DNA of 64,000 nucleotides, from contig JAFGAZ010000004.1 of NCBI GenBank assembly GCA_016933455.1, positions 9,116-73,115 of the forward strand, given 5' to 3'. Positions within the stretch are counted from its first letter, which is position 1. The number at the start of each line of letters is the position of its first letter. Below, piece after piece: positions 38,559-56,954 of this stretch. Origin of the DNA: Candidatus Aenigmatarchaeota archaeon (lineage in GTDB: Archaea > Aenigmatarchaeota > Aenigmatarchaeia > Aenigmatarchaeales > Aenigmatarchaeaceae). Both the position numbers and the translations under genes were made by a program. The notes under the pieces were generated by a model. The model searched no databases and was not told the origin of the DNA. It saw nothing but the letters and a program-made list of their open reading frames with translations.

Positions 38559-39005
38559 CTATTCTTCGTTCTCAAGGTAGATATAGTCTGCAACATCCTC
38601 TTCGCGCTTTGGCTGGATGTGTTCTGCCAGTTTTGCCCCAAAGTTGTTAAGCCTTCTTTCAAGGCTGAGTGTTTTCTCCGCCAGCCTGTCCAAAGAGTCC
38701 TTGTTTTCTGTCTTGTGCCTATTAAGCCTTTCCTCTAGCTGCTCCATTGCGGAATTAACGCTAACTCTTTTTACCATGTCCTTGCAGATGTTTTCCAGAT
38801 TGTCTATTTTATTCTTTATCTCTTCTCCCACCTTCTCTTCTTTCAAGGACTTTTTCCTTTCAAGCTCGACCATTGCCCCAAAGCCTATGGAATCAACTAT
38901 TAGGAGCACTATTAAAACTTGTAGAAAGTCGTAACCCAAAAGCTGCAGCGCTGCGGACACCACGGTCATGAAAATCAGTATCCAAAATGCTGTCTTGTAG
39001 GACAT
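38559..39005 (-). CDS. Membrane-anchored coiled-coil protein, 148 aa.
   Basis: Two N-terminal TM helices, then a charged coiled coil. Promoter motif aaaaggatttaaacc at 39023-39037. Confidence 0.55.
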   Translation of the reverse strand: MSYKTAFWILIFMTVVSAALQLLGYDFLQVLIVLLIVDSIGFGAMVELERKKSLKEEKVGEEIKNKIDNLENICKDMVKRVSVNSAMEQLEERLNRHKTENKDSLDRLAEKTLSLERRLNNFGAKLAEHIQPKREEDVADYIYLENEE

Positions 39006-39067: not shown

Positions 39068-39835
39068 TCACTTTTTGATCCTAAGTTTTCTAAGAAATCT
39101 CAAAAGCTTGCCCTCTGTTTCGTAAACCTCGCCAACAAGTTTTGAAGAAAGGCTAATTAGCTCCTTGCTTGCTGCGCTGTAGGGCTTGAATAGGACAACA
39201 GGCATCTTCAAAGTAAGGCTCTTGTGCACGTTCGTGTCATGCGGTATCTTGGCAATCACGGGAAGTTTTGTCAACTCCTCTATCTCAGAGTCGGACATTT
39301 CATAGTTCTTGTTGTTTGACATGTTAACCACTACACCCAAAGGCTTGACCCCTATCTCGTTTGCGATCTCCTGGCACCTGACAATGTCCATTACAAACGG
39401 TATGTAGGGGTTTGTAACATACAATACCTCGTCAGCAGCCCTCATTGATGCTATGCCCTCTCTTCCAAGGCCCGGGCTTCCGTCAAGAAGAACTATGTCA
39501 TTGTCGCTCATTAGGCCCTTTAGCTTGCTTCTTAGCTCTGTTATGTCAACGCCCTCCAAATCAGTTAGAGACAAAGAAGCAGGAACAACCTTCATGCCGC
39601 TGTAGTGCTCGCTTACAGCGTCCTCGACCTTGTACTCTCCTCTTAGGACCTTGTTTAGTGTTATGGGGCAATAGTACATGCCAAGATACAAACCCACGTG
39701 CGATGTTGTTACATTGCAGTCGACCAGTGTAACGTTCTTGTTAAAGTGCTTTGCAAGAGAGGCGCCTATGTTTAGACCTAATGTAGTCTTTCCAACGCCG
39801 CCTTTCCCAGAAATAATGCTTATTACCCTAGCCAT
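39068..39835 (-). CDS. MinD/ParA-family ATPase, paralogue A.
   Basis: Deviant Walker A SGKGGVGKTT, switch regions and a MinD-like body. The start is taken at MARVISIISGKGG, which avoids overlap with the upstream small ORF. Confidence 0.8.
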   Translation of the reverse strand: MARVISIISGKGGVGKTTLGLNIGASLAKHFNKNVTLVDCNVTTSHVGLYLGMYYCPITLNKVLRGEYKVEDAVSEHYSGMKVVPASLSLTDLEGVDITELRSKLKGLMSDNDIVLLDGSPGLGREGIASMRAADEVLYVTNPYIPFVMDIVRCQEIANEIGVKPLGVVVNMSNNKNYEMSDSEIEELTKLPVIAKIPHDTNVHKSLTLKMPVVLFKPYSAASKELISLSSKLVGEVYETEGKLLRFLRKLRIKK

Positions 39836-39848
39836 TACAACACCACTA

Positions 39849-40109
39849 CTATTTCTCTGGTTTCTTATCTTTTTTAACTTTTCTATTGCTTCCAAAAAGT
39901 CCGCCCAAAAAACCACCGCTTCCTTTCTTTAGAAACGGCAGCCCTGTTCTTGGGTCCTCGAAAACAACATACCCGCTGGGCACGCTGCTTAGCGCATCCT
40001 TTGGGTCCTCGGAAAAAAAGTATAGTTTTGACTTGCCTCTCATTGTCATGTGAAGCCAGAAATTCTTTTTCTTCTTGTTCTTGTAGACAAATGTTCCGAA
40101 AAGACCCAT
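39849..40109 (-). CDS. Small basic protein, 86 aa.
   Basis: ORF with GLFG/GGFLGGLFG glycine-rich motifs. Low support. Confidence 0.3.
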   Translation of the reverse strand: MGLFGTFVYKNKKKKNFWLHMTMRGKSKLYFFSEDPKDALSSVPSGYVVFEDPRTGLPFLKKGSGGFLGGLFGSNRKVKKDKKPEK

Positions 40110-40142
40110 GTTTTATAGATATTTTTTCCTTTCAATTTAAGT

Positions 40143-41366
40143 CTATGTCTCAGCTTCTTCCATTCTCAAAAGCTTGGGTTTTCTTTTATCTTTCTTCCTA
40201 TTGTGAAGCATAAGGAATATTACTGCTATTGCAATTATTACAAGCAAAAGCCAAAGAGGGCTAAAAGATGGTGCTGTGTATACCACAAAAGAAATCTGAG
40301 CCAGTTTTAAAGTGGCGTCCTTTAGTATGTCCTTTAATTCTTCCAAAGAAGAGCTTGCTGACAAATAATCCTCTTGTTCGTAAAAATTTTTGGCTTCCTG
40401 CATTTTTGCTTTGGCATTTTCTAGTTCAATTCCCACTTCAGTTGTGTCAAGGTCCTTTGCTCTGGCATCTATTATCTGCCTTTCAAGGTCTGCTATTAGA
40501 AGATCGTAATTGAGTATCGTGTTTTTCACATCATCCTTTAGAGAAACGTCGTAAGATGTCAGGTTTACTTTTATTGTGCCCGTTTCCTTGAGCTCTCTTG
40601 TTACAAGCTCAAAGTCTATTGGGTACTCGCCTATGGGCGCCTCGTTTGGCGCGAAGATGTCTAAAAGGAAAACAACCGTTTCCCCGGGGTCTAGGTAATA
40701 AGATTCCTTTGGATTCATGTCAATGTCTAAAAGGTTGGAAGCAGACAGATGCATCTTCATCTCATGGATTGTGGCGTTTCCTATGTTCTTTACCTTGATG
40801 TTGGTCATCACGCTTCTGCCAGGGTATACATTTATTGATTCGGGATAGCTGACGTTGAGCGACGGCGTGACTTCTGCCCATGTTCCAAAAGGAAAGTTTT
40901 GGGCATAAACGTACGGCGTATAATCCGGGAAAGTAGCATAGAAGCTTCCCCAAGCCTCCATTCTTTTGGTGCCCATTGTTATTCTGACTTTGATGTAATA
41001 GTATCCCATTGTGTTTGGCGTGAATTTTGTTTCAAATGGCCTTCTCATGCCTGGATAAAGAGTTACTGTCGAGTCCTGATAGTGTACCAATTCCTCAAGC
41101 TTGTCTGAATAGTAGTAGATGTACTCTTCTATTGTTAGGTCGTATGTTTCTGTTCCTGAATTGAAAAATTCTACGTAGATATCCTGGGTTTCCGATACGT
41201 TCGCCAGGGTTTCAAAGTTAAAGGCTGATATATGGCCGCTGAAATTGCTCTTTATAGCAACATCGAGCTGATGCATGGTCATGCCGGTTATCCCGTAGGG
41301 TATAAAATACGCAAGAGATGCTAGGACAATTAGCAAAACAAGAATGTGCAGCCAAAACTCTCTCAT
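40143..41366 (-). CDS. Membrane-anchored surface protein, 407 aa.
   Basis: N-terminal TM/signal, extracellular beta-rich body with N-X-S/T sequons and a coiled coil, C-terminal TM (LWLLLVIIAIAVIFLML), and a basic tail. Confidence 0.6.
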   Translation of the reverse strand: MREFWLHILVLLIVLASLAYFIPYGITGMTMHQLDVAIKSNFSGHISAFNFETLANVSETQDIYVEFFNSGTETYDLTIEEYIYYYSDKLEELVHYQDSTVTLYPGMRRPFETKFTPNTMGYYYIKVRITMGTKRMEAWGSFYATFPDYTPYVYAQNFPFGTWAEVTPSLNVSYPESINVYPGRSVMTNIKVKNIGNATIHEMKMHLSASNLLDIDMNPKESYYLDPGETVVFLLDIFAPNEAPIGEYPIDFELVTRELKETGTIKVNLTSYDVSLKDDVKNTILNYDLLIADLERQIIDARAKDLDTTEVGIELENAKAKMQEAKNFYEQEDYLSASSSLEELKDILKDATLKLAQISFVVYTAPSFSPLWLLLVIIAIAVIFLMLHNRKKDKRKPKLLRMEEAET

Positions 41367-41398
41367 ATAAACTAATTTGAGCCTCAGATATAAAACCC

Positions 41399-41998
41399 TT
41401 AATATTTTTTGTATAACAACAACGCAATCGCAATGGTTGCTATGACCAAGATAAATACAATGCTGCTCTCTTCTTTGTCTTCATAATTTTCCTTTGGTAT
41501 GATAATTTCTTCTTCAAAGTCATCTTCTACAACATCAGGCTCGATTCCTCTTAGTCCTACTTTTAAGATGAAGCTGTTTTTTGGAACCATTGTTAGCTGT
41601 CCTGTGTCCTGAGATGTTATCTGAGAAACTATTGTAAAGGAATAGTTGCCGCTTTCCTCGTTTTGCGGCGGCTTTACGAAAACATTTACTATTTTTGCCC
41701 TTATGTTTTCATTCATATACGGCAGGCTTATGTATTCCTCTCCTGTTTCCTTGTCAAGCAAAAATGAAGCAGGGTCTATTATTACTGTCCAACCTTCCGG
41801 GCTTTCAACATTCCTTATTTCCATCGTGTAGGGCTCATTTCCAGAATTCCAGAAAAGTATCTTGAACCTTGCAGATTGCTCCAAAGCTATTTCCTGATAA
41901 TCGTACTTTAGGCTGTTGCCTATGCTTATCGCATTTGCGCAGCAGGCTAGTGCTAGGAAAAAAAATGCAAAAAACATGCTAAGGCGCTTCTTGTCCAT
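41399..41998 (-). CDS. Secreted protein, 199 aa, with a C-terminal TM anchor.
   Basis: Signal peptide (FFLALACCANA) and C-terminal IVFILVIATIAIALLLYKKY. Confidence 0.55.
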   Translation of the reverse strand: MDKKRLSMFFAFFFLALACCANAISIGNSLKYDYQEIALEQSARFKILFWNSGNEPYTMEIRNVESPEGWTVIIDPASFLLDKETGEEYISLPYMNENIRAKIVNVFVKPPQNEESGNYSFTIVSQITSQDTGQLTMVPKNSFILKVGLRGIEPDVVEDDFEEEIIIPKENYEDKEESSIVFILVIATIAIALLLYKKY

Positions 41999-43310
41999 TT
42001 TTTACCCCCCAAACATATATGCTTCCCGCATAGTAACCAGTGTATACTGGCGGAACATTGATCCAATACCAAGAAGTTATGTTACTGCCTTCTGAAAATC
42101 CAGAGCCTAGAAGACTTGCTGTTTTTGATAGTTCATGGGCTTCGGAAAAATCATTTGTTGTATTGCTCCAGCTTATGTTCGAAACGCCTATCGTATATCC
42201 TAACGTTTCGTTTGTCAAGTCGGTTCCGTTTATGTATATATCCAAATTGCAGCTGCCCTCGTTGACTGTCACGTTGTAGTCGTTTATGTCATTTCCCTCC
42301 GCGCTGTTCTGTCCGGAGCTAGGGTCAAGCATACCGAAAATTATAGAACTCCATTGCATGTTGATATCTATTGTGCAGTCGCTGATAGAGATTGTCACGT
42401 TTTCAGTTGCATTGTCTTCCACTTCGTCAAAGGAAGAGTTGAACATTGCTCCTATTTTCCATCCGCTGTTTATGTCTGCAGTTGCGTTTATCGACCAGTT
42501 GACAAGACAAAAATCCCCTGATAGCATGCTCCCGCAAGGCTTTAGAGGATTCAAAGGGCTTTCGTTTACAAAGAAGGGCTTGTCTCCAAAAGTATCGTTC
42601 ACAGGATAATTAGGGTATTCTGATGAAAGGTTGTACATTACTGTTCCAAAAACATTGCCGCAAGGGCCGTCTCTGCAAACAATGGACGTGTTTACGAAAA
42701 ACGTCTTGTTTTGTATTATGTTAAGAGTTGCTTGTGTGTCTGGATTTAGCATCTCAACTTCTAGATAGCTTGCATAACCTACATAGTACTGCACATAGTC
42801 CTCCTTTAGAAGACCCACATCCGAATCCCCTGTGGAGTTTATCTTGAATCTGATTCTTCCATCGGAAGAGTTAAAGTCCATTGCATTGCTTGTTATGTTG
42901 CACCACCATTTTGTAGGAGTGTTTGGGGGAACTGTGCCAAAGTCACATCCGGAAGATACCCACAAAGAGTTTTCCCAGTCGTACACGTTCAAGCTGTAAT
43001 CATCCGAAACATTGCTTGTAAAGTTTATCGTGATGTTTATCGAATCTATGCTGCCATCAGCTATCTGAGTCGAGTTGTGCCATATGTCAACAAAATTGCT
43101 TCCTGTTTTGAACTCTTCCTCTATGTCGTATGTCAAATCCTCTCCAAGAATGTTTAGGTCTTCATAATCGCCTGTTGGCGTAAGGCCTATGTCAACTAGC
43201 GGCTCTCCTTCCTGGTCGTATTGTACTGTAACTTGGGCAAAAGCAAAAGAGCTGTTGCTTAGAACCAGCAATAAAATTAAAAACAGAGTCGCTTCGGTTT
43301 TTGATGGCAT
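41979..43310 (-). CDS. Secreted surface protein rich in sequons, 443 aa.
   Basis: Signal peptide and very dense N-X-S/T sites (NSS, NIT, NFT, NVS and others). It overlaps the next gene by 20 nt. Confidence 0.6.
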   Translation of the reverse strand: MPSKTEATLFLILLLVLSNSSFAFAQVTVQYDQEGEPLVDIGLTPTGDYEDLNILGEDLTYDIEEEFKTGSNFVDIWHNSTQIADGSIDSINITINFTSNVSDDYSLNVYDWENSLWVSSGCDFGTVPPNTPTKWWCNITSNAMDFNSSDGRIRFKINSTGDSDVGLLKEDYVQYYVGYASYLEVEMLNPDTQATLNIIQNKTFFVNTSIVCRDGPCGNVFGTVMYNLSSEYPNYPVNDTFGDKPFFVNESPLNPLKPCGSMLSGDFCLVNWSINATADINSGWKIGAMFNSSFDEVEDNATENVTISISDCTIDINMQWSSIIFGMLDPSSGQNSAEGNDINDYNVTVNEGSCNLDIYINGTDLTNETLGYTIGVSNISWSNTTNDFSEAHELSKTASLLGSGFSEGSNITSWYWINVPPVYTGYYAGSIYVWGVKNGQEAP

Positions 43311-43319
43311 AGAAATACC

Positions 43320-44096
43320 TCAGGCGAACTCTTTTTTCCTTTTGAAAGCCATCTTTACCTTGTCCCAGAAACTGTAACTGTAGTCGTGTCCCGCTATCTT
43401 GGCAGCCAGCTTAAAGAAGGCCTGTTGCGACGGTGATTTCTTTTTTGATGAGGCAACTAGCTCCTTTTTGTTAAAGCTTGCCAAAACCTCTTCGTCTTCT
43501 GGAACATACCCTATTATCGGCATTTCTAAAAACTGCTGTATCTCTTCCATGGTCAATTCGTACTTTTTGTTTCTGACCCTGTTGACAATTACACCTAGTA
43601 ATGTCGGACGTATCTGGAACTTTTCTATCACATGCTTGCACTTTTCTATGTCAACCAAAGACGGTATGAAAGGGTTTGCGACAAAAAGCGTCTCGTCGCT
43701 TGCCTGCAGAGCTATCATGGCCTCCTTGCCAAGGCCCGGAGCAGAGTCTAAAATAACTATGTCGTAATCCGCAAACACCTGCTTTAATTTTTCCTTAATG
43801 CCGCTGACATCAATGTTAACTATGTCGTCTAGTCTTAGGGATGCTGGCACAACGTTAAGGCCTGATTTGTGCTTGTATATGGCGTCTTCAAGCTTAACCT
43901 CGTTTCTCAAAAAATTGTTTAGTGTTAGAGGGCACTTGTACATGTCAAAGTAAAGACCTATGTGTGACGTTGTTATGTTAAAGTCTATAACAGCCACTTT
44001 CTTGTTATATTTCTGGAGTGCCACGCCCAGATTGGCGGCTATCGTGGTCTTTCCTACCCCTCCTTTGCCAGAGCACACGTTTATTATTCTTACCAT
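43320..44096 (-). CDS. MinD/ParA-family ATPase, paralogue B.
   Basis: CSGKGGVGKTT Walker A, collinear with paralogue A. Its start overlaps the stop of the upstream 783-aa gene (44096-44099). Confidence 0.85.
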   Translation of the reverse strand: MVRIINVCSGKGGVGKTTIAANLGVALQKYNKKVAVIDFNITTSHIGLYFDMYKCPLTLNNFLRNEVKLEDAIYKHKSGLNVVPASLRLDDIVNIDVSGIKEKLKQVFADYDIVILDSAPGLGKEAMIALQASDETLFVANPFIPSLVDIEKCKHVIEKFQIRPTLLGVIVNRVRNKKYELTMEEIQQFLEMPIIGYVPEDEEVLASFNKKELVASSKKKSPSQQAFFKLAAKIAGHDYSYSFWDKVKMAFKRKKEFA

Positions 44097-44098
44097 TA

Positions 44099-46450
44099 TT
44101 AATCACCTTTTTGCGTCAAATTTTTGGAAAATTTCAAAACATTGGGAAATTCCGTTATTATGAGCTTGTCATAGCTTCCTGTGTTTGGATGCATGGGCTG
44201 ACCGTCGGTGCTCATGTATTTCCTAACACCTATAAGGAAACTCCTTATCTCTCCCCTGTTGCTGAACTTTTTTCTTTTTTTTAGCAGTATTGCAAGCGAA
44301 AAGCAAACTGCCGCGAATATTCCCACGAATGCCAGTTCATAGTAGCTTATTTGCGGTAGTGTAAAGCCTGTTGCAAGACCTGTTGTGGGAACTGTTTCTT
44401 GCTCGCCAGTTTCAAAAACATTAAGGCCAAATACCAGCTCTTGTGTAATTTCATTGTTTTCAGATTTCAAAGTCACGCTTCTTATGCCGGTTTCCATGTA
44501 AACAGGGATCGAAATATCCAATGTTATATCCCTGCTTTCTCCTACTTTGAGACTTATCGTATCGGGTTGAAGAGTGTAATAGTCCTGTGAAATGCCCTCC
44601 AAGTAAAGCAGCATTTCGGTTAGGTCATCTTGTCCGTCGTTGACTATCGTAAAATTATAGCTGCTGCTTCCACCCCTTTCTATTCTGACAGTCTCTGGAA
44701 AGTCGATGAAAACTGATTTGCTCTTTACAACTGAAATTTTTGTTTCTCCATTGAAAGCGCTGTAGGGCTCCTTTCTTGCATCAACTGATACAACATATTC
44801 TGCCTCGTTTTTTGGAACGTCAAGCTCCACGGAAAACACGCCGTTGTCGTCGGACTTTACTGTTATGCTTTCCTGCGTGTTTTTTATGGCGACAAAAACT
44901 GTGGTGTTTCCGACAACATCTCCGTCCTCATCCTTTGTTATTCCCGACACCTTTATTGTTTCGTCCAGATTGTACTCTTTCTTGTCCGTGCTAAATACCG
45001 ATTTTAGACTCTTGACCTCGCCTATTACGAACGCTGAAAGACCTGAAGCTGTTATTCTAACATTGTTTCTTATCATGTCTATGTCGTATCCGATCTCTTC
45101 CCATTCGTCACTGCATGCTTGCTTTCCCATGCTCCAGTCCGAGCATCTAAACACCTTTAGCTCATCCTCGTCTATCACATTGCCTTCGTCATAGTCCATT
45201 TCCAATTCCAGTGTTGAATAGTCAAGACCTATCTCGTAGCCGTATAGGCCGGCGTTTCTTATGCCGGGTATTTCTGTTTCGTCGCCGTAAAAATAATTTA
45301 TAGGATCGTCAAATTCGCTGAGCGTCACGCTTGAGAGTTCAATTTGGGATTTAGGAAAGTCAATGACTATGTCGTAAACTCCTGGAGGCAAAAGTCCTCC
45401 GTATTTGCCGTATGCGTCTGTTGATACTGTCAGCTTGTTTATATCGTTCTGATTGAACTTTATCTTGGTGCTTATGGCTTTGTTGTTTTCATCAACCAAC
45501 TCGCCGTCAATGACTACAGCGTATTCTATCTGCTTGTTTGCAGAATAAGTTTTCGATTCGTGGCTCATGCTGGCTTCTAACTGATAGCTTCCAGGCGAAA
45601 GCGGCGGGGCCATGATGCTAATAACATAGTAATTCCCCTGCAAGGAAAAGCCCGTTACATCAGCAGAGGTTCCACCGATTTTTATTCCAATATCGTTCTG
45701 GTCTAGGCTTATCATGTTTCCCTTGTCCATAGCCAATACGGAGACTGTTATGTTGTCCTTGCTCTTAATCCACGTCTTTGATACTGAAGCTATCTCAAAT
45801 TCAATGCTGTTTCTTACGTCAGCAGAGCCATAGTCGGTTACTGATGCCCCCTCATAGAACATAGTGACACTAACATCGTAAACATCGCGTGTTCCTGGAG
45901 TGTCAAGCTTTAGTATCCACCCTCTTGTGATGTCGTATGCAGGAACAACCTTGAGATTTTTCAAAACACCGTCAAGCGTCACGTTGAACAAGACATCATG
46001 CGTTATTCTTGCACCATCTTTCTCTGCTACAAAGTCTATCTCTATTGTGTCGCCTATGTATGCTGGCACCGGTCTTATGTCGCCTATGTATCCTGACAAG
46101 CTAGAAACCGTAAAGCTGCTTGCTTGGCTTGTGATATTGCTGACATTGTTTTTGCAGTATACGGTCACATCATATGTTCCAATCCTGTCTAGATACGCCT
46201 CGCTTAAAGACAGCTGATAGTTTATGTTCCCTGAAAAATAAAGTATAGGCAGCAATATTTCTGGACCTTCTATTTGGGCATACACCTGTTCTATTGACAT
46301 GTTAGCATTGTCAGTGCACAAAAGTTCCATGTCAACGCTTGTTCCAATCCAAGGATTTTGCGGGTCTATCGAAAAGTCTTGTATGACTGGCATTGCAAAA
46401 GCCGCGTTAACGGAAAGCAAAAGTATGACTAAGGGCAGGAGTTTTTTCAT
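44099..46450 (-). CDS. Large surface protein, 783 aa: signal peptide, repetitive Ig-like beta domains, a TM anchor and a cytoplasmic tail of about 60 aa.
   Basis: MKKLLPLVILLLSVNAAFA signal, TM FVGIFAAVCFSLAILL followed by KKRKK, then a soluble tail immediately before the MinD gene. Confidence 0.7.
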   Translation of the reverse strand: MKKLLPLVILLLSVNAAFAMPVIQDFSIDPQNPWIGTSVDMELLCTDNANMSIEQVYAQIEGPEILLPILYFSGNINYQLSLSEAYLDRIGTYDVTVYCKNNVSNITSQASSFTVSSLSGYIGDIRPVPAYIGDTIEIDFVAEKDGARITHDVLFNVTLDGVLKNLKVVPAYDITRGWILKLDTPGTRDVYDVSVTMFYEGASVTDYGSADVRNSIEFEIASVSKTWIKSKDNITVSVLAMDKGNMISLDQNDIGIKIGGTSADVTGFSLQGNYYVISIMAPPLSPGSYQLEASMSHESKTYSANKQIEYAVVIDGELVDENNKAISTKIKFNQNDINKLTVSTDAYGKYGGLLPPGVYDIVIDFPKSQIELSSVTLSEFDDPINYFYGDETEIPGIRNAGLYGYEIGLDYSTLELEMDYDEGNVIDEDELKVFRCSDWSMGKQACSDEWEEIGYDIDMIRNNVRITASGLSAFVIGEVKSLKSVFSTDKKEYNLDETIKVSGITKDEDGDVVGNTTVFVAIKNTQESITVKSDDNGVFSVELDVPKNEAEYVVSVDARKEPYSAFNGETKISVVKSKSVFIDFPETVRIERGGSSSYNFTIVNDGQDDLTEMLLYLEGISQDYYTLQPDTISLKVGESRDITLDISIPVYMETGIRSVTLKSENNEITQELVFGLNVFETGEQETVPTTGLATGFTLPQISYYELAFVGIFAAVCFSLAILLKKRKKFSNRGEIRSFLIGVRKYMSTDGQPMHPNTGSYDKLIITEFPNVLKFSKNLTQKGD

Positions 46451-46665
46451 TTTCTTTCCCTCCTTGGAACCATGTATATATTGGACCTGCCCACTTTGTG
46501 CAGTTCGAGCTTGCCCTGGTTTTTTAGAGCTTCAAGATAACCTGCTGCAACATCCCTTCTCATGCCGAGCTTTTTGGCTATCTGCGATACTGACAGCAGC
46601 TCCTGTCCAAGAATGTCTAGAACCTTTTTCTCGAAATCCGCCCCTGTAAGCCCCTTTTCAGCCAA
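46447..46665 (-). CDS. Small winged-helix transcriptional regulator of about 72 aa. A TTG start is proposed. The tracked ORF 46447..46809 reads an N-terminal extension through an AT-rich spacer.
   Basis: wHTH LLSVSQIAKKLGMRRDVAAGYLEALKNQGKLELHKVG. The tracked N-terminus is low-complexity Y/I/S-rich and has no other Met. Its stop overlaps the 783-aa gene start. Confidence 0.5.
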   Translation of the reverse strand: MAEKGLTGADFEKKVLDILGQELLSVSQIAKKLGMRRDVAAGYLEALKNQGKLELHKVGRSNIYMVPRRERK

Positions 46666-46771: not shown

Positions 46772-47521
46772 CTAGTTGAAAATAGCGTACTTGATGCTGT
46801 CTGTGACAAAGAAATACAAGCCTACAAGACCATCAAGCTTTTTCATTTCAATTGTTTCTTCCGTATAGTACTTGCCGTTATCAGAAGCTATCAATAGCTT
46901 TACAGAAGAGGTCGCCCAAAGAGACGGCACATATCTTATCATGACGTACTTTGAACTGTTGGTTTTTATTTTGTCTATTACTTTCTGTTCGAATATCCAT
47001 CCCGACATATAGTCGGTTGGCATTATGACAATGTCTTGAACATCTGCGTTTGCTATCACATCGAAAAGCACATAGTCGTCGTATGTCCTGAAATTCCTTA
47101 TTGAGAATACATCTTCTTGTTGCGTTTTGTTTTCCACAACAAATTCCACATTCTTGTACTCGCTCACCTCGTTTCCGAAATAAATCTTTAGTTTCGATAA
47201 GTAAACGCCCGGGTTCAAAGTGTGCCAGTATATGTCAAGAACCTTCTTGTCGCCAGGATAGAATTCCTCTTCAAGGCTCCAGCCGCTGAATATCGTTTTT
47301 TGGTTGTTGTCTTGTATTTCTATCTTTGCTCTTGCCTTGTATGGAACGCTTCCTGTGTTGTAGAATTCAGATGAAAACTTTACAAGATTTGACCCTTCTG
47401 TTGAGAATGCTATTAACCTGCCATCAACAATTTCCGACACGCCCACATCTATTGATGCAGCGTATGCTACGCATACTGAAACAAGCATACAACCTACCAG
47501 TATCAAAGAACCCTTCATCAA
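46772..47521 (-). CDS. Secreted protein, 249 aa.
   Basis: Signal peptide (LILVGCMLVSVCVAYA). Its start abuts the stop of the upstream gene (47521/47522). Confidence 0.6.
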   Translation of the reverse strand: MMKGSLILVGCMLVSVCVAYAASIDVGVSEIVDGRLIAFSTEGSNLVKFSSEFYNTGSVPYKARAKIEIQDNNQKTIFSGWSLEEEFYPGDKKVLDIYWHTLNPGVYLSKLKIYFGNEVSEYKNVEFVVENKTQQEDVFSIRNFRTYDDYVLFDVIANADVQDIVIMPTDYMSGWIFEQKVIDKIKTNSSKYVMIRYVPSLWATSSVKLLIASDNGKYYTEETIEMKKLDGLVGLYFFVTDSIKYAIFN

Positions 47522-48019
47522 TCAGACTATGACAGGAAAATTATAAATAGGTTTCTTGATGATGACATCTATTTCTCCTGAATAGAAATCTGCAATTTCA
47601 TTGCTTGTAAATATTATGCTAACAGAGGTTTTCTCTTCCGGATTTAGCAAAATGTTGTTTTTGCTAAACGACACGTGATTTGATATGTTTCCATAAGCTT
47701 TCAGGATTATTTCGACGTCGTGTTCATTCGAATTTGACAAATCGACTGTTCTTGTGGAATAGCTGCCATTTGCAGGTACTGCCCCGAAATTTATGTTCCA
47801 GCTTTCAGTTGCAAAGCCAAGTGTTATAGTGCTGTTTGTCTGGCCCGATGTCACCTCAACGCAAGAAGGATACCTTATTATGTCATAGTTAAAGAAGATG
47901 TTCGAATAATTGTTCACAGTCGTGTTAGATACTGTTTCCTGAGGTTCAGGGGGTTCAAGCATATTGGCTAAAAGTATGAAAACCACCACAAATGCCAAAA
48001 GCATGGTTTTTAGGTTCAT
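47522..48019 (-). CDS. Secreted protein, 165 aa.
   Basis: Signal peptide. Its start overlaps the upstream stop (48016-48019). Confidence 0.55.
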   Translation of the reverse strand: MNLKTMLLAFVVVFILLANMLEPPEPQETVSNTTVNNYSNIFFNYDIIRYPSCVEVTSGQTNSTITLGFATESWNINFGAVPANGSYSTRTVDLSNSNEHDVEIILKAYGNISNHVSFSKNNILLNPEEKTSVSIIFTSNEIADFYSGEIDVIIKKPIYNFPVIV

Positions 48020-48945
48020 TTTGCTCTCCTGTAAATTATTATCGAAACAATTAATATCAATATTATTAGAATAAAAATTGTCATGTCGCCTTCCTGCTTA
48101 ATTGCCATTGTCGTTGCTTTTGAAAGCGTTATCTTGGAGCTCTTTTCTATTTCGCCTGTTCCATAATCTATTATAGTGTAAACATCGTAATCTTCTGCTT
48201 CTATTCCTTTTGTCGATAGTATGCCCTTGAAAGTGGCTATTTGCTTGGGTTCTATGTATTTTTTTGCCAGCTGAAGCTCGCCTACAAGGTTGCCTTCTTT
48301 GTCATACAGTCTCTGCAGCCCCTTGGCTGAAATAGTTACAGAACCTGTGTTTTGGAAATATGTCTTAATTTCCACAGAATTTTCATTATCATTTCCCAAT
48401 TCAACATCAAGTATTGCCCCTTTCCTTACAGCGTCTCCCGGCACTTTGAACATGACTTTTACAGAAGTTATGGCAACAACTTTGCTTCCCACATTGCCTA
48501 TGTCGCCTTGGTCGGAAAGCGGTATCGGCTTTATCTTAAACATGTGATCCCCAGGCTCCGCATCCCTTGGTATTTTTAAAAGAAAGCTAACCTTCCTGTG
48601 GCTGTTTATATTACCGCCTTCTGTTTCCAAGACATCGTATTCGGGTTCTAGTTCCACTGGATTGTTTATTATGTCAATCCATGATAAAACGTTCTCTTCG
48701 GAAAAGTTGTTCTTTAAGGCTACTGTGTCGAAAATAACTGTTTCCGGCTCTAGTTGCACAAGCAAGGTTTCTTCTGATGCTGTTACTATGTAGAAATCTA
48801 CTACTTCTGTCGTACCCGGAACCACTTGGCCCATGTTAAATGAGCCTGGAGAAACGCCTACATTTGCTGCCCCTACCATAATTGGGATAAATAGCAAAAA
48901 GACAAAGGAAAAAATTATGCAAGTTCCCAAAGAACGCGGTTTCAT
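48016..48945 (-). CDS. Secreted protein, 309 aa, with a C-terminal TM anchor.
   Basis: Signal peptide (IIFSFVFLLFIPIMVGAA) and C-terminal FILIILILIVSIIIYRRAK. Confidence 0.65.
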   Translation of the reverse strand: MKPRSLGTCIIFSFVFLLFIPIMVGAANVGVSPGSFNMGQVVPGTTEVVDFYIVTASEETLLVQLEPETVIFDTVALKNNFSEENVLSWIDIINNPVELEPEYDVLETEGGNINSHRKVSFLLKIPRDAEPGDHMFKIKPIPLSDQGDIGNVGSKVVAITSVKVMFKVPGDAVRKGAILDVELGNDNENSVEIKTYFQNTGSVTISAKGLQRLYDKEGNLVGELQLAKKYIEPKQIATFKGILSTKGIEAEDYDVYTIIDYGTGEIEKSSKITLSKATTMAIKQEGDMTIFILIILILIVSIIIYRRAK

Positions 48946-48986
48946 AAGATTTTATTGTGGCTATAACAATATAATAATATTTATAT

Positions 48987-49009
48987 AGCGGGTTAATGAA
49001 AATAATATT
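48987..49009. promoter_or_regulatory. Inverted repeat GGTTAAT-n9-ATTAACC in the divergent promoter gap between 48945 (-) and 49022 (+).
   Basis: Read directly as ggttaatgaaaataatattaacc. Confidence 0.35.
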
Positions 49010-49021
49010 AACCTTATATGG

Positions 49022-49921
49022 GTGTGTATAATGAAAAAAATGAAATTATTGATTTTTGGCGCAGTTTTATCTGCTTTTTTTGTTTTATTCGCTTTTAGTT
49101 TGGTTGCAATGCCAGCGTTCGCAGATTCAAGCGACACTGTTACTGTTGACGTAAATGTCTCAGAAGCATCTTCTATCACAGTGCTTCCAGCCACCCTTAA
49201 TTGGACAGACATAGCTTCGGGACAAGCCGGTGGTACAAAATACCTCAACATAAAAAACACGGGTTCTTTGAACGTATCTGAAATATACGCATATGTTGAT
49301 ACGCTGATTACAGAGCCTGTAAGACCATACGGTCTTGCATACCCAACCAACTATTCTGCGGGAAGCGTCATAACACTCAAGAACGAGACTGATACTGGTT
49401 ATTATTTTGCAGGAAGAATAGAGTGGAACTGGACACAAGATATTCCAAACAATGATTGGTCCGCAGTAACAGACCCTGTTGCATGGGGTTACTTTAGAAA
49501 TGCGAGCAGTGATTATGTTTGGGTTCTTGGAAACGGAACAACAGGCTGCAACGATACAGATGCAGAATTTGCAGTAGAGTATGATGTTGACTTGGGTACA
49601 ACTGCAACAAGAACCCCCGAGTCTATTGGGGCAGCGGATGATGGAGACGATGAATGGAGCTATTTCAGCGTTTCTGATGCAAGTTCCCCACTTGACACAT
49701 ATTGTGTGGCAGCGTACTATGACTGCACCAAGGTTTACATATACCACTATGACCAGAGAACATCTCCTAACTTTGCTGGTTGTGGCCTTTCAAGCTACTT
49801 GCAAGAAGCAAACCTAACCCCTGGTTACAGCATAATACTAGAAGTTGATGCTTGGGTGCCTTCCGGTTATCCATCAGGATACCTGAACACCACAACCCTA
49901 ACAGTCTACGCTTCTTCGTAG
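49022..49921 (+). CDS. Secreted protein, 299 aa. It is the only plus-strand gene in the surface locus.
   Basis: Signal peptide (AVLSAFFVLFAFSLVAMPAFA), many sequons, and no C-terminal TM. Confidence 0.6.
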   Translation: MCIMKKMKLLIFGAVLSAFFVLFAFSLVAMPAFADSSDTVTVDVNVSEASSITVLPATLNWTDIASGQAGGTKYLNIKNTGSLNVSEIYAYVDTLITEPVRPYGLAYPTNYSAGSVITLKNETDTGYYFAGRIEWNWTQDIPNNDWSAVTDPVAWGYFRNASSDYVWVLGNGTTGCNDTDAEFAVEYDVDLGTTATRTPESIGAADDGDDEWSYFSVSDASSPLDTYCVAAYYDCTKVYIYHYDQRTSPNFAGCGLSSYLQEANLTPGYSIILEVDAWVPSGYPSGYLNTTTLTVYASS

Positions 49922-49926
49922 TTGTT

Positions 49927-52900
49927 TTACTTTAACTTTTTCTCTATTTTACTCATCTTCTTCTCAAGGCTATCCTTCATTCTTGCATAGGTGCCTTCTG
50001 TTATCAGACCTTCGCTCTTTTCCTTGTCTAGGACTTTGATCATTCTGAATATCTTTTCCTTCTCTTTTTGAAGCATCTCAACTTCCGCATCGCTTTTTCC
50101 TGGTCTGTGGAAAGCTCCCTTGATTTTGGATAGCCTGTTTTTTAGAATACTTTTTAGTTTCTTCTTTCTTTGCAAATATACCAGAATTATGACGATTATG
50201 ATTATTGCTATTAAGCCTATGAAAATGAAAAGAAGCGACGAGAAAGTGTCTGGCTCCTCCATTTCCAGCATGTCCAAAAGGTCCCTTGCTCTTGATATGA
50301 GGCTAAGGGCGCTGCCTGTTTTTTCCATGCCAGCGTCTATGTCGTTGTTTTTCAGGTCCTTTTTGGCGTTTTCTATGTAGGATTCTATGGTGTCAACTAG
50401 TGTTTGGACATCCGATACGTCCTTTCCTTCCCTTTCAGCTACCCTGAGGTCTATTTTCAGCTCAATTAGGCTTTCCTCAACCATTGCTATCTCGGCTTCA
50501 AGAACTTCCTTTATCGAGCTAAAGATGTTTACCTCTATTGACTGCTGGTCGCTAACAACTCCTGATGTCACAAGCAGGCTGGCATCATAGTTTCCTGTGT
50601 TTGTGTTCTCGGGTATGTTGAACTCTACTAGGAATACTGAAGAATTGTCAGTTACAAGTTCATCGTATTTTGAAGGCGTTATGTTAAACCAGTTGGTCGG
50701 AACACCGAGAACAAAAAGGCTCACGTTATTTAGATCAACCCTTCCGCTGTTCTTTACAATCACTTTTTCTATTTTTGTAAAGCCTCTTGCAAGAGTTATG
50801 TTGTTGTTATAGCCTGTTATGAGTATGCTTGCATCGGTTTCCTGTGTTGGCTTTATAGCGTAATACGTCGGGGTATTTCCAACAGATGTCTGTGGTGGTG
50901 CGGGTGTTGTTCCTGCAGATGAGACGTAAAAAGTCACGTTAGCGTCTATGGGTGATTGGTATAGGCTGTATGTAACCTTGGCGTTTATGGTGTACGTTCC
51001 AAGAGGCTGGTCAGTGTATATGTATGCGTTTCTGGTAAAGCTGCTGTTGCTGTATGCTGGAGTTAAGACAGCCTCTGAAAATGAGTAGTAGCCATTTCCA
51101 GATTGGTCTGTTATGTTGTATATCACATAAACGTCTTGCGTCACCTCTCCTTTGTTTTCCAGAATTATCTCAAAGTCAAGATAGTCGCCCTGCGGGACCT
51201 CGTTTTCGAACAGGTTGAGCCTAACGTCGTAGGGACCTCCCTGTGAAACTCTGAATGCTTGTATCTTCATTGAGCTAAATGAGCCGTCAGAAACATTGAG
51301 TACAGCCATGTACATGCCTGTTGGTGTGCCAACACCCATTGCGTGCGAGTATGTATAGTATCCTGTTGCCTCTTTTGTAAGCGATGAAAGTGTTGTTGAA
51401 AAATAAAGGTTGTCTGCAGAATCGTAGACTGTCAGATTTATCTCGTCTGGGTCTATCGGTCTTCCCTCCCCGTTGTACACCAGCATGCCGAATTTCATTA
51501 TGTTGTTTGGATACCAAACAACAGATGTTTCAACATCAGCGAAAAGCCCTGTCACTGATATTGTCCTTGACTCTACATCGAAAGTGCTGTTTTTCTGTAG
51601 GTTCAGTGTCTGGTTTAGCACGTCTTCATAGAAGCTATAGTTGGTAAATAGCGTGTAGGTTCCTATGGGAGCGTCTGACTGTAAGGAGAACGTTGGCATG
51701 GGTGATATTGTTCCGTCAGAGTTGGACACGTTCTGCGAATAGTGTGTCAGGTTGCCATAAGGGTCTGTTATGTTAAAGGTTATGTTCGAATTGTTTATAC
51801 CCGTGCTGTTGGCATCCCTTAGCATAAAGTACAAGGAACCCGTGTCTCCCTGGTAGTACGTTCCTGCCAAAGGAGTTGACGTCACAAGCATTCTTTGGTA
51901 TATTGAAAAGTTAGTGCTGTAGTTGCCAAGGTTTCCTATGTTGTCCGAGCTGTATATGGAAACATTGTATATGCCTCTTTGGTTTGTGTTGCCAAGAGCT
52001 TCTGTGTAGTTTAGATACCATTGTGAAAAGTTTCCGCTTTCATTGAGTAGTGTCATGCTAGTGCTGCTTGAAAAGCTGTCGGGTTTTGTCACAGTTACAT
52101 TAAGCCACTTTATGCCGCTGTTTGACCTGTCTGTTAGGTTCACAAAGAACTCGACTGATTCGTTCTGCTCAGTGAAATTCGGGGTTATCAAAGTCTCCAT
52201 AAGCGGGGGAACATTGGGCAAAAGGTTTACTTGGAATGTTGCGTTGTCTGGTTGGGCGTCTGCCTGAGTTGCGTTAACCAAAAAAGTCGAGTTGAATATG
52301 GACGGCGATATGCCTGTTACGTTGTAAAGTATTGCCAACGTGTGATTGGAACTTCCGTTGACAGAGAATTCAGTTTCGTTTGCTGTTGTATAGTTGCCGT
52401 TTTCAGGGGAGACTGTGAAATTTATCACATCGTTTCCAATGTTCATTATCTCTATCTGGCACGCGGTTCCCTCTTCAGGCTCTTCTGCCTTTTCGCAGAA
52501 TGTGGGGTATAGTGTCCATGTTCTGTTTGAAAGCACGGTTATGTTTACCAATAAAGTGTCATAGTCTCCGTTGCCTGCAGAAACGTTCAAAGTTGCGTTG
52601 TAAACACCTGCTGGATAGCTAAGAGGTACTGTTGCATTCAATGAAACAGAGCTGTTATCATCTACATCAATGCTTGAGATGCTAGATGGCGTGAATTCTA
52701 AAGTAAAGTTATCGCACACGTCTCCGGAGATGCAACTAAATGCAATATTTTGCAAGGCGTCGTTTCCAATTGAAAGAACCGTAAAGTTGCTAATGTATGA
52801 TTCCTCTGCATCTGTTGCGCTTCCTGAAATGGTAATTTCACTTACGTTTATTTTGGGATTTGAAGCTACTGTTACGTTTAGGGTTGTTGTGTTAGAACCA

Positions 52901-55823: not shown

Positions 55824-56306
55824 CTATTCTAAACCGAAAATGTCGAATTGCACGTTGCTTTTCATGTAAGAAGAAGCCATGTAGTATTCCCCTGCTGTTA
55901 TTGAGCTAAAGCCAAATAACATCATCGGATATGCTGCAATTCCAAGGCTTGCCAAACCCATGTCCAAGGCGCTGAAAATAAAGGATAGCCCGAAAACCAC
56001 CATGAACATGTTCCTTCCCGGTGTTTTCATTGACAGGAAAAGAAGACCAAAACAAGAAGTCATCAAAAGGCCGCTAAGATAAAAAAGAGTCTGGTTCATG
56101 CCGTTTGCGCATATCATTTCAGTGTAAGGCCCCTCCAGCATGGAATTCAAAAGAACTGCCTTTCCCTGCTCGCAACCCATAAGATAGCCTGCCCCAAGAT
56201 GTGTTATTTCGTGTATAGATATTAGTGCGAAAAACACTGTCACATTGAGCAATATTATACTTAATATTTTCCTTTTCATGGGCTCACGAGAAGTAGTTAA
56301 ATACAA
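55824..56306 (-). CDS. Small polytopic membrane protein with an HExxH motif, a putative intramembrane metalloprotease.
   Basis: IHEITHLGAGYLMGCE lies at the end of the first TM helix, with four to five TM helices overall and 160 aa total. Confidence 0.5.
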   Translation of the reverse strand: MYLTTSREPMKRKILSIILLNVTVFFALISIHEITHLGAGYLMGCEQGKAVLLNSMLEGPYTEMICANGMNQTLFYLSGLLMTSCFGLLFLSMKTPGRNMFMVVFGLSFIFSALDMGLASLGIAAYPMMLFGFSSITAGEYYMASSYMKSNVQFDIFGLE

Positions 56307-56950: not shown

Positions 56951-56954
56951 GAAA

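Follow-up and report, generated by a model that had tools for sequence, protein, structure and literature searches.

Two MinD-family ATPases embedded in a conserved envelope gene cluster of Aenigmatarchaeota

MinD-family ATPases of surface structures and of the Aenigmatarchaeota locus

The closest known counterparts of the ATPases considered here are MinD4 and MinD2 of H. volcanii, members of the same archaeal MinD family, which act without MinC or MinE and position archaella and chemosensory arrays, cytoplasmic or motility machinery encoded apart from them. MinD4 reportedly has a C-terminal membrane-targeting helix. The cargo of both proteins is non-division cargo (PMC13228585, PMC11588486), and no H. 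volcanii MinD of the four is responsible for divisome positioning (PMC13228585). For the gene that shares an operon with MinD2, no phenotype was seen (PMC11588486), so gene adjacency can mislead. FleN/MinD ATPases recur in archaeal surface-structure loci (PMC4858521); those of arCOG00589, found in type IV pilus loci alongside S-layer-like or Ig-domain proteins, are predicted regulators of assembly or placement (Makarova, Koonin and Albers 2016, PMC4858521). The locus described here, from an uncultivated DPANN archaeon, likewise places MinD-family ATPases among genes for surface proteins. Unlike MinD4 and MinD2, its MinDs are operonic with TM-anchored surface proteins, and the window (the whole 64,000-nucleotide stretch of DNA that was analysed) yielded no motility genes. 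Unlike the type IV pilus loci, it lacks a PilB/VirB11 ATPase, TadC, prepilin peptidase and class III signal peptides, and beyond the MinDs it encodes just one ATPase, a HerA-type domain that is part of a surface protein. Operon-encoded ATPases of the MinD/ParA fold also site or license other envelope machines, namely BcsQ (cellulose synthase), TadZ/CpaE (Tad pili), FlhG/FleN (flagella) and VirC1 (T4SS); the gene setting is alike, but the partners are unrelated to those found here and the corresponding models score far below cut-offs.

MinD-B (43320..44096, 258 aa) and MinD-A (39068..39835, 255 aa from its ATG) are both encoded on the minus strand, as are all features below unless stated otherwise. 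That they are paralogous MinDs, as a preliminary description had proposed, was borne out: they share 45% identity across 240 aa (E = 4e-81), and both pass the cut-off of NCBIfam TIGR01969 minD_arch (201.75), with 236.1 bits for MinD-B and 209.3 bits for MinD-A. Archaeal MinDs were the top matches of both in a PDB search (best for MinD-B: A. fulgidus MinD-1, 1HYQ, E = 8e-46), and an identical copy of MinD-B is annotated in an NCBI Aenigmarchaeota MAG. The MinD-A start was placed at 39835 rather than at an alternative upstream GTG at 39916 (282 aa) because four orthologues begin at the same MARVIS/MVRII position. MinD-A and the mini86-adjacent MinDs form a separate clade in a neighbour-joining tree without support values. 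The two proteins are archaeal-type MinDs and lineage-specific paralogues. ParA partition models fell far below their cut-offs, whereas the archaeal MinD model was passed; TIGR01007 gave 52 bits against a cut-off of 108, and BcsQ and CpaE-like models gave significant partial matches, all far below cut-offs.

The ATPase motifs are intact. MinD-B has the deviant Walker A SGKGGVGKTT and the Walker B ILDSAPG, and there is no variation in Walker A (with the signature Lys11 and Lys16), Walker B or D149. MinD-B ends in the basic amphipathic tail SFWDKVKMAFKRKK (about 43323-43370) and MinD-A in GKLLRFLRKLRIKK, and basic amphipathic C-termini are a pattern kept across the MinD orthologues. Measured against random 25-mers, the MinD-A tail has a hydrophobic moment (0.73) above the 95th but short of the 99th percentile; the MinD-B tail, at 0.62, does not reach the 95th percentile for random peptides, which counts against the amphipathic-tail argument.

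Both genes belong to a ~25-kb cluster (38.5-64 kb of the window), and this setting suggests that the MinDs organise a cell-surface structure rather than cell division. We give about an even chance to a reading in which the cluster-embedded MinDs act at the membrane to recruit, cluster or position surface components. ATP-bound MinD dimers would sit on the inner membrane face by their C-terminal amphipathic helices and there recruit, cluster or position membrane-anchored surface components, MinD-B through a tail motif of the surface protein surf783, directly or via a winged-helix protein, and MinD-A through the small membrane-peripheral adaptors mini86 and tmcc148. In this way the cell would fix where a surface structure, perhaps a site of host contact, is built or how many copies of it are made.

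The MinD-B gene pair, its cytoplasmic motif and its winged-helix neighbour

MinD-B directly follows surf783 (44099..46450, 783 aa), as had been described: the surf783 stop TAA occupies 44099-44101, the MinD-B ATG starts after a 2-nt spacer, and a GGTGA lies 7-8 nt 5' of that ATG, inside the surf783 gene. The surf783 protein comprises a Sec-type signal peptide, ~7 Ig-like beta-sandwich domains that form an all-beta ectodomain, a stalk, a TM helix spanning residues 703-728 (hydrophobic core 703-723, about 44282-44344) and, again as described, a 60-aa cytoplasmic tail (44102-44281). Its Pfam match is CarboxypepD_reg (3.2e-9). An AF2 model has a mean pLDDT of 83.2 with the tail modelled at low confidence, and Foldseek with this model returned only generic Ig/MG arrays. 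The 27 further homologues include only Aenigmatarchaeota among the source-named matches.

The check for co-occurrence elsewhere that the preliminary description had called for gave a uniform result: wherever neighbours of a surf783 homologue were visible, a MinD gene adjoined it (15/15 loci: window, L001, L002, L003, L005, L006, L008, L009, L010, L011, L088, L089, L092, L095, L096). The adjacency persists at surf783 identities down to 26% and occurs in two orders, wHTH-surf783-MinD and wHTH-MinD-surf783. Consistently, for at least 16 of the 28 surf783 matches the longest contig was of equal size to that of a MinD-B match. The weight of this evidence comes from the survival of the linkage through rearrangements, since adjacency in a single genome says little. 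The loci compared represent ~10 lineages of related Aenigmatarchaeota that are incompletely independent, and much of the synteny could be inherited.

The tail, for which a search for MinD-binding motifs had been advised, holds the short conserved motif YDKLIITEFPN (44141..44173, residues 760-770; consensus Y-x-x-L-I-x-[TS]-E-F-P-N) beside a poorly conserved linker. Across 27 sequences, conservation reaches at least 93% at Y760, I764, E767, F768, P769 and N770, and its mean is 0.72 in the motif window vs 0.32 in the linker (the motif window ranks 77 of 766); the motif is as conserved as the fold core. It is present in 26/26 full-length surf783 homologues of the B-type MinD lineage and missing from those of L010, L092 and L096, all with a C-type MinD; the motif co-varies with MinD type, and it is a candidate site of contact with MinD-B. 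The same gene-pair logic is known from the split BY-kinases CapA/CapB and YwqC/YwqD of Gram-positive bacteria, in which the short cytoplasmic C-terminal tail of a TM protein binds and activates a MinD-fold P-loop protein encoded directly downstream. Here, by contrast, TIGR01007 stays below its cut-off, a C-terminal tyrosine cluster is lacking, and the partner is an Ig-array surface protein, not a polysaccharide co-polymerase.

A winged-helix gene is the invariant third member of the MinD-B module. In the window it is wHTH72 (46447..46665, 72 aa, TTG start; Pfam matches SoFic-like_C at 6.5e-6, HTH_29 and MarR_2), the first gene of the wHTH-surf783-MinD triad, whose stop overlaps the surf783 start by 4 nt (ATGA) and which is preceded by an AT-rich stretch of ~100 nt with TATA-like boxes. 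Such a gene precedes surf783 or MinD in L001-L003, L005, L006, L011, L089 and L091-L094, and lies directly 5' of MinD in L011 and L092; L095 has a 79-aa gene of unscanned domain content in its place, and in L010 wHTH and MinD are fused in one ORF. This constancy, together with the in-frame fusion, opens a regulatory reading, in which the surf783-adjacent MinD and the wHTH protein would form an ATP-dependent transcriptional switch for the surface-protein operon, setting how much or how many rather than where. By analogy, its models would be FleN-FleQ and the autoregulation of type Ia ParA through an N-terminal HTH. The latter proteins (P1 ParA, F SopA) carry an N-terminal winged HTH, and the likeness lies in an ATPase joined to a winged helix, fused in L010 and encoded by adjacent genes elsewhere; here, by contrast, the ATPase is MinD-like with a predicted membrane-targeting tail, and no ParB or centromere was identified. 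The promoter-like stretch just 5' of wHTH72 and significant PDB matches to FleN structures (E = 1.6e-16) also fit a switch. However, MinD similarity is far above FleN or ParA similarity, the conserved amphipathic MinD C-terminus favours membrane over DNA association, and the fusion occurs in one MAG only. A switch would also leave unexplained both the cytoplasmic motif with its co-variation and MinD-A, which has no HTH partner. We consider it unlikely.

Partners of MinD-A

The proposal that each MinD is dedicated to the surface protein encoded upstream proved too restrictive. MinD-A does come after the 407-aa protein surf407 (40143..41366) and an 86-aa ORF, but it is not immediately downstream of surf407, from which the small ORF separates it. 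Nor does surf407 have a tail like that of surf783: behind its N-terminal hydrophobic segment, NEW3-like domain (NPCBM_assoc match 0.0029, below cut-off), helical stalk and TM helix, only about 16-20 aa remain. It is conserved in L001-L003, L005, L006 and L010, whereas in L011, which has no surf407 homologue, the MinD-A homologue lies downstream of a homologue of the giant surface protein surf1951.

The constant partners of MinD-A are instead mini86, a multi-TM protein with an HExxH motif and a 2TM coiled-coil protein. The small ORF, mini86 (39849..40109, 86 aa), is a real gene, as the 16 orthologues at 58-82% identity indicate. Its small beta-rich domain, of the pattern FWLH..GK..LYFFS.DP....P.GY.V.E.P.TGLPFLKK, is preceded by an N-terminal MGLFG and followed by a GGFLGGLFG..K-rich segment at the C-terminus; this core domain has 250 representative homologues and matched no Pfam family. 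The gene lies directly 5' of the A-type MinD in L001, L002, L005, L006 and L095; in L010 one further gene stands between the two. Directly 3' of MinD-A is tmcc148 (38559..39005), which starts with two TM helices, continues as a cytoplasmic coiled coil and ends in the acidic DYIYLENEE, and its orthologues follow the A-type MinD in those same five loci (L001, L002, L005, L006, L095). The third partner, TMzn160 (55824..56306), is zincin-like, with 3-4 TM helices, a HEITH (HExxH) motif and a faint Peptidase_M50B match (E = 0.076); in L010 and L011 its homologue lies directly 5' of the A-type MinD.

Genomic setting and the remainder of the envelope cluster

The cluster adjoins rpL1-L10-L12 in the window, L001, L002, L006 and L095. 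This neighbourhood accords with a reading in which the MinDs are ATPases that serve the cell cycle or cell organisation in general and originally resided in the ftsZ-secE-nusG-rpL11/rpL1-L10-L12 region, the surface genes being a lineage-specific island inserted there and the adjacency functionally meaningless. One locus, L004, has just such a context: its B-type MinD (61% identity) lies between rpL11/NUDIX and rpL1, 3 kb downstream of ftsZ, and is flanked by three tmcc148 paralogues, with no surface genes among its visible neighbours. MinDs of other DPANN phyla likewise have unrelated neighbours and no linkage to surface genes. Against this, L005, L010 and L011 keep both MinDs inside the cluster, away from rpL1-L10-L12, so the case named as refuting a surface role, MinDs of a division context beside which surface genes were lately inserted, does not hold in general. 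Moreover, the L004 MinD is nested in the B clade (neighbour-joining tree without support values), in which every other member is linked to surf783, a pattern suggestive of secondary loss or relocation. The surf783 adjacency also outlasts reordering and persists at 26-35% identity, none of the H. volcanii MinDs (0/4) positions the divisome (PMC13228585), and meaningless adjacency would leave the gene fusions and the tail-motif co-variation unexplained. We judge it decidedly improbable. The non-divisome role originally proposed is favoured by the conserved surface cluster and by the finding of no MinC, MinE, archaellum or chemotaxis genes among profile matches around the locus; the L004 MinD near FtsZ speaks against it.

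The cluster is a conserved envelope gene cluster of Aenigmatarchaeota with three modules: wHTH, surf783 and a MinD; mini86, the HExxH membrane protein, MinD-A and the 2TM coiled-coil protein; and a giant surface protein with a fused cytoplasmic HerA-type ATPase domain, together with coiled-coil scaffold proteins. About eight more secreted or TM-anchored Ig-like proteins make up the remainder. Between MinD-B and surf407 lie s443 (41979-43310, secreted) and s199 (41399-41998, signal peptide and C-terminal TM), whose homologues follow the B-type MinD in L001-L003, L005, L006, L009, L088 and L095. Upstream of wHTH72, four secreted or membrane-anchored beta-sandwich proteins, sec299 (49022-49921, plus strand), s309 (48016-48945), s165 (47522-48019, with an ASH/Ig-like match) and s249 (46772-47521), form a block (46772..49921) kept in L001-L003, L005, L006, L010, L011, L089, L092, L093 and L095. 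The surf1951 protein (49927..55782) has NEW3 and MG2 domains (Pfam NPCBM_assoc 1.4e-24, MG2 4.5e-21) and, after a C-terminal TM helix, a cytoplasmic coiled-coil tail of 77 aa; it is conserved in every related locus.

The HerA-fused protein, HerAsurf1603 (59162..63973; its true start probably lies upstream of the window), has a very large Ig/NEW3 ectodomain (NPCBM_assoc 1.9e-14), two TM helices, a cytoplasmic HerA/DUF87 P-loop ATPase domain (DUF87 2.1e-7, 31.7 bits vs cut-off 23.2; PDB match to HerA-like YjgR, 1.8e-6) and a coiled coil. Its intact Walker A (AAGGTGSGKT) and Walker B (LLLVYDEVH) behind the TM helices could mark a HerA/FtsK-type motor driving DNA or protein through a transfer channel, and the MinDs, by analogy with VirC1, TadZ or BcsQ, would recruit substrate or nucleate the machine at one site. 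Gene order in L011 (HerA-fused protein, cc736, two small genes, surf1951, TMzn160, MinD-A) joins this protein to MinD-A, the wHTH-MinD link would supply a DNA-binding adaptor, and the BcsQ and CpaE-like matches are significant though sub-threshold. However, a profile search of the cluster turned up neither a polytopic membrane protein that could form a channel nor a relaxase, pilin or secretion ATPase of known type, the HerA match is weak and would imply pumping by analogy only, and HerA-MinD linkage is visible in fewer loci, because flanks are too short in most. A transfer apparatus is in our view very unlikely.

Returning to recruitment or positioning of surface components at the membrane, two fusions tie the cluster modules together, that of wHTH and MinD in L010 and one in the coiled-coil group. 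The latter group comprises the charged cytoplasmic coiled-coil proteins cc736 (56955-59165, with two GFF..(L/M)FGKK motifs), cc106 (56630-56950) and cc98 (56333-56629). In L011 and L097 a cc736 homologue comes after the HerA-fused protein, and in P0183 such a homologue is fused to a mini86 domain, in a gene that sits between the HerA-fused protein and a surf1951 homologue.

Two archaeal-type MinD ATPases

MinD-A (39068–39835, minus strand) and MinD-B (43320–44096, minus strand) both scored above the curated whole-protein cut-off (201.75 bits) of the NCBIfam model for the archaeal cell division ATPase MinD (TIGR01969, minD_arch; 209.3 bits for MinD-A and 236.1 bits for MinD-B). They are 45% identical to each other, in agreement with the preliminary description of two paralogous MinD ATPases. 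The nearest solved structures are the MinDs of Archaeoglobus, Pyrococcus horikoshii and P. furiosus, with FleN and FlhG much weaker matches, and an exact copy of MinD-B is annotated on an 81-kb contig of a Candidatus Aenigmarchaeota MAG. The window MinDs do not qualify as members of the bacterial MinCDE division-site system: they reached 86 and 137 bits with the bacterial MinD model TIGR01968, both below its cut-off of 212.9, and no Pfam match to MinC or MinE was found in the scanned neighbouring cluster proteins (a set that excludes the coiled-coil proteins cc106 and cc98).

The deviant Walker A motif SGKGGVGKTT and the Walker B motif (I/L)LD(S/G)(A/S)PG are kept in 17 A- and B-type sequences (A, B and C designate MinD clades), among which K11 and K16 (Walker A, signature lysine), D117 and P120 are invariant. 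D149 is also kept in both window MinDs, together with the signature lysine, Walker A and Walker B. The two acidic residues of switch I (Walker A') are presumably those numbered D38 and D40 in E. coli MinD. D38 is present. All A- and B-type MinDs have Asn at residue 40 (D[CF]N.TTSH; codon at ~43977–43979 in MinD-B), a change that may affect ATP hydrolysis. We considered this Asn as a cluster-specific mark of a hydrolysis-slow 'scaffold' MinD and rejected the idea, because many DPANN MinDs unlinked to the cluster share it (D.N.TT.., loci L012–L034); Asp stands at this position in the C-type MinDs and some of the other archaeal ones. Across the orthologues of both MinDs the C-termini, possible membrane-targeting helices, retain a basic amphipathic pattern, with a hydrophobic moment of 0.73 for MinD-A (>95th percentile of random peptides) and 0.62 for MinD-B (<95th percentile).

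Gene layout and linkage to surface proteins

From ~33.9 kb to the end of the window the minus strand holds almost every gene. First in transcription order is the gene for HerAsurf1603, a 1603-aa surface protein (59162–63973, minus), followed by those for the coiled-coil proteins cc736, cc106 and cc98 (736, 106 and 98 aa; 56333–59165, cc736 at 56955–59165, minus), for TMzn160, a 160-aa multi-TM protein with an HExxH motif (minus), and for surf1951, a 1951-aa surface protein (49927–55782, minus). Next come a divergent plus-strand gene for a 299-aa secreted protein, genes for secreted or anchored proteins of 309, 165 and 249 aa, wHTH72 (72-aa winged-helix protein; 46447–46665, minus), surf783 (783-aa surface protein; 44099–46450, minus) and MinD-B. 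Three further secreted or anchored proteins (443, 199 and 407 aa) separate MinD-B from mini86, an 86-aa ORF (39849–40109, minus), which precedes MinD-A. Downstream of MinD-A lie tmcc148 (148-aa 2TM coiled-coil protein), a 145-aa protein, rpL1, rpL10, rpL12, a 499-aa surface protein and an AlaRS-like gene. The ATG of MinD-B lies 2 nt past the TAA of the surf783 gene, with GGTGA just upstream. With both ATPases above the TIGR01969 cut-off, the two being clear paralogues, and MinD-B abutting surf783, the original observation of MinD genes directly behind genes for TM-anchored surface proteins with cytoplasmic tails is therefore confirmed with two corrections: MinD-A does follow the TM-anchored 407-aa protein in gene order, but the 86-aa gene intervenes and the 407-aa protein has a tail of only ~20 aa.

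Conservation of the linkage was examined in the neighbourhoods of MinD-B relatives, in a species-level genome scan, in a metagenome scan and around individual surf783 homologues, all annotated against the window proteins (loci denoted L001, L002 and so on). Among the matches listed in the genome scan, made with a MinD alignment, most were bacterial MinDs, and ~30 archaeal loci were usable; the metagenome scan, made with a surf783 alignment and poorly chosen patterns, returned 7 loci. A MinD gene stood directly beside the surf783 homologue in 15/15 surf783 loci with visible neighbours, from ~10 lineages, at surf783 identities down to 34% (L008), 27% (L009), 31% (L010), 35% (L092) and 26% (L096). 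At these loci the suggested check for co-occurrence of the gene pair in other genomes came out positive. At least 16 of the 28 surf783 database matches (window copy counted) share the length of their longest source sequence with a MinD-B match. Two gene orders were found, wHTH-surf783-MinD and wHTH-MinD-surf783 (the latter in L010, L011, L092 and L096). The cluster adjoins rpL1-L10-L12 in the window and in L001, L002, L006 and L095; in L005, L010 and L011 it lies away from these genes with the MinDs still inside it. The cluster moves as a unit.

In a neighbour-joining tree of the MinDs, built without support values, a B clade and an A clade are sisters and a C group is more divergent. Each has its own context: B-type genes lie downstream of surf783, A-type genes next to mini86 and/or the HExxH protein, and C-type genes upstream of surf783. 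Gene neighbourhoods around the MinDs of Woese-, Pace-, Nano- and Iainarchaeota are quite unlike these. We conclude that the association of the window MinDs with a surface-protein gene cluster is genuine and conserved. The exception is L004, where a B-type MinD (61% identity), nested in the B clade, has rpL11/NUDIX on one side and rpL1 on the other (L004:9173–11220) and ftsZ-secE-nusG 3 kb upstream, with no surface genes present and three tmcc148 paralogues flanking the MinD. This locus favours the view that these are housekeeping MinDs which happen to lie within a surface-gene island close to the ribosomal/ftsZ region, a view that we nevertheless consider unlikely in the face of the relocated clusters, the reordered genes, the gene fusions and the co-variation of a surf783 tail motif with MinD type (see below).

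In genomes resembling Woese-, Pace-, Nano- and Iainarchaeota, a soluble protein of ~140–155 aa, of two sequence types, is encoded right before MinD (L015, L017–L019, L021, L022, L024 and L067; at ~9.4–10.0 kb in most). Neither type had a Pfam match, and a roadblock/LC7-like identity considered for the ~147-aa proteins of one type was dropped for lack of Pfam support.

Candidate partners of the two MinDs

The AF2 model of surf783 (mean pLDDT 83) predicts a signal peptide, ~7 serial beta-sandwich domains, a disordered stalk and a TM helix (703–728), followed by a juxtamembrane helix (733–747) and a low-confidence tail. A Foldseek search with this model returned only generic tandem Ig/MG-array matches, with TM-scores of 0.27 or lower, and surf783 is therefore given no functional assignment. 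Across 27 homologues the conservation of the tail averages 0.72 for the segment GSYDKLIITEFPNVLKFS against 0.32 for the linker, and each of Y760, I764, E767, F768, P769 and N770 is conserved to 93% or more, a level equal to that of the fold core. Such a pattern typifies a short linear motif. This motif, [SD]Y..LI.[TS]EFPN, occurs in 26/26 full-length surf783 homologues of the B-type-MinD lineage and is missing from the homologues paired with C-type MinDs (L010, L092 and L096). Such co-variation would be expected of a specific relationship between tail and MinD, but phylogeny confounds it. The proposed inspection of the tails for a MinD-binding motif thus yielded a candidate, which appears to track MinD type.

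The surf783/MinD-B pair has its closest mechanistic analogue in split BY-kinases, in which the cytoplasmic tail of a TM protein activates a MinD-fold protein encoded downstream. The window MinDs differ from these kinases in that they score well below the threshold of the BY-kinase model (TIGR01007, eps_fam, 108 bits; MinD-B 52 bits, MinD-A 20 bits) and lack the C-terminal tyrosine cluster, the single conserved Tyr being Y239.

The winged-helix gene is closely associated with the same pair. The end of wHTH72 overlaps the start of surf783 by 4 nt, and an AT-rich stretch of ~100 nt with TATA-like boxes precedes wHTH72. On an 802-kb Aenigmatarchaeota scaffold, a winged helix and a MinD form a single 315-aa ORF (L010:3660–4607, minus) directly upstream of a surf783 homologue, and Pfam finds both domains; this fusion is a single instance in which an assembly frameshift is possible. 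A regulatory role for MinD-B is thus a live alternative: the winged-helix protein and MinD could form a regulatory pair like FleN/FleQ or a type Ia ParA, which we regard as rather unlikely overall.

The constant neighbours of MinD-A are three small proteins, mini86, the HExxH multi-TM protein and tmcc148; in the window the HExxH gene lies elsewhere within the cluster, and in L010 and L011 it immediately precedes MinD-A. The 86-aa ORF is a genuine conserved gene. Its core (..YYLH...G...LYFFS..P..A...P.GYEV.E...TGLP.LKK; homologues P0165–P0314) has 250 representative homologues in a library of 1.8 billion proteins, mostly stand-alone proteins of 60–70 aa, and is sometimes duplicated or C-terminal in larger proteins. 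No Pfam family matched mini86 or its homologues, and an AF2 model from 16 sequences (mean pLDDT 54.5) was too poor for a fold search. The core is flanked by MGLFG... and ...GGFLGGLFG-K-rich segments, similar to the two GFF..(L/M)FGKK motifs of cc736; we take the flanking segments to be similar to the membrane-targeting sequence of E. coli MinD. The cc736 motifs themselves resemble MinD/FtsA-type membrane-targeting sequences. In an Aenigmatarchaeota contig, a cc736 homologue (P0183, L097:1169–3196; 43% identity over 287 aa) carries a mini86 domain at its C-terminus and is encoded between a HerA-fused protein and a surf1951 homologue.

The claim that each MinD is dedicated to the surface protein upstream of it is partly supported: the conserved cluster link and, for MinD-B, the candidate motif speak for it, and it is too simple for MinD-A. 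In the reading that we prefer, ATP-bound MinD dimers at the inner membrane face would recruit or cluster anchored surface proteins, MinD-B through the surf783 tail motif, perhaps together with the winged-helix protein, and MinD-A through mini86 and tmcc148. We give this recruitment reading about an even chance. The genome itself points to candidates for both cargo and binding site, with an 11-residue cytoplasmic motif on a surface protein, a winged-helix partner and a pair of small adaptors; the organism is uncultured, and the motif, adaptors and partner are open to peptide, co-folding and heterologous work. Should the link hold, the cargo of MinD/ParA proteins would come to include membrane-anchored surface proteins, and the finding would point to a conserved envelope cluster, so far uncharacterised, in a DPANN phylum with an undescribed cell-cell contact apparatus; if it is not, the window holds two ordinary MinD paralogues within a surface-gene island.

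HerA-fused surface protein and known systems

HerAsurf1603 combines a very large NEW3/Ig ectodomain bearing many N-x-S/T sites, two TM helices, a cytoplasmic HerA/DUF87 ATPase and a coiled coil, an unusual architecture in which a surface ectodomain is joined to a pumping-type ATPase. The ATPase domain matches PF01935 (DUF87/HerA) at 31.7 bits (Pfam cut-off 23.2), has intact Walker motifs (A, AAGGTGSGKT; B, LLLVYDEVH) and matches HerA-like YjgR in the PDB (1.8e-6), which by sequence places the protein in the HerA/FtsK superfamily. Since the listed GTG start lacks a signal peptide, the gene probably starts upstream of the window. By eye, SHOCT-like motifs (G.I(S/T)..eY...k..L) occur in the surf1951 tail, cc736 (three times), cc106 and cc98; Pfam reported no SHOCT domain in cc736 and surf1951, the two of these proteins covered by its scan.

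The two independent fusions and the conserved block structure indicate that the MinD modules, the coiled-coil proteins and the HerA-fused protein are one system. The MinDs might be VirC1/TadZ/BcsQ-like recruitment ATPases serving a HerA-driven translocation machine, which we consider very unlikely. More broadly, the cluster could encode a previously undescribed, Aenigmatarchaeota-specific envelope-spanning machine, with a HerA/FtsK-type motor fused to a giant surface protein, a cytoplasmic coiled-coil scaffold and Ig-like surface arrays. The site of this machine, or its number per cell, would be set by two dedicated MinDs, one of them reading a surface-protein tail motif and linked to a DNA-binding protein of the winged-helix type; for a DPANN cell that depends on a host, the machine could be a host-contact or transfer organelle. 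This picture is speculative, and we doubt that it holds as a whole.

To our knowledge, only motility-related cargo is known for the MinDs of H. volcanii. No archaellum or che genes, the cargo expected of a MinD4-like motility-positioning MinD, were found among the scanned window ORFs. Known cargoes of archaeal MinDs are archaella and chemosensory arrays; the divisome is not among them and, in H. volcanii, is placed by a separate Dip system (PMC13228585). FleN/MinD ATPases (arCOG00589) are frequent in archaeal type IV pilus loci, alongside S-layer-like proteins (PMC4858521); the window cluster differs from such loci in that no PilB/VirB11-type ATPase, TadC, prepilin or prepilin peptidase genes were found in the cluster or the scanned rest of the window. 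A predicted archaeal secretion system with arCOG01314, MoxR and vWA proteins (PMC5898192) was also considered and rejected, as the cluster contains no MoxR, vWA or DUF4350 components. In H. volcanii, the gene conserved beside MinD2 in its operon gave no phenotype (PMC11588486), which calls for caution in reading conserved adjacency as function. No description of the present module was found in the literature on Aenigmatarchaeota or DPANN with MinD, HerA or surface clusters.

Three other genes of the window deserve mention. The AlaRS-like gene (32107–33861, minus) is short; its product of 584 aa shares just 29% identity with the AlaRS of 864 aa that L004 has in the syntenic place, and the L001 orthologue carries tRNA-synt_2c and tRNA_SAD. 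In a 274-aa protein (27424–28248, plus) an ATP-cone occurs together with an Mrr-type restriction endonuclease domain and, at the C-terminus, an AF1548-like domain, an architecture also seen at the edge of L004. Finally, a eukaryotic-type DNA topoisomerase IB, an enzyme of patchy distribution in archaea, is encoded at 11273–13009 (minus), with strong matches to Topoisom_I_N, the catalytic core and Topo_C_assoc.
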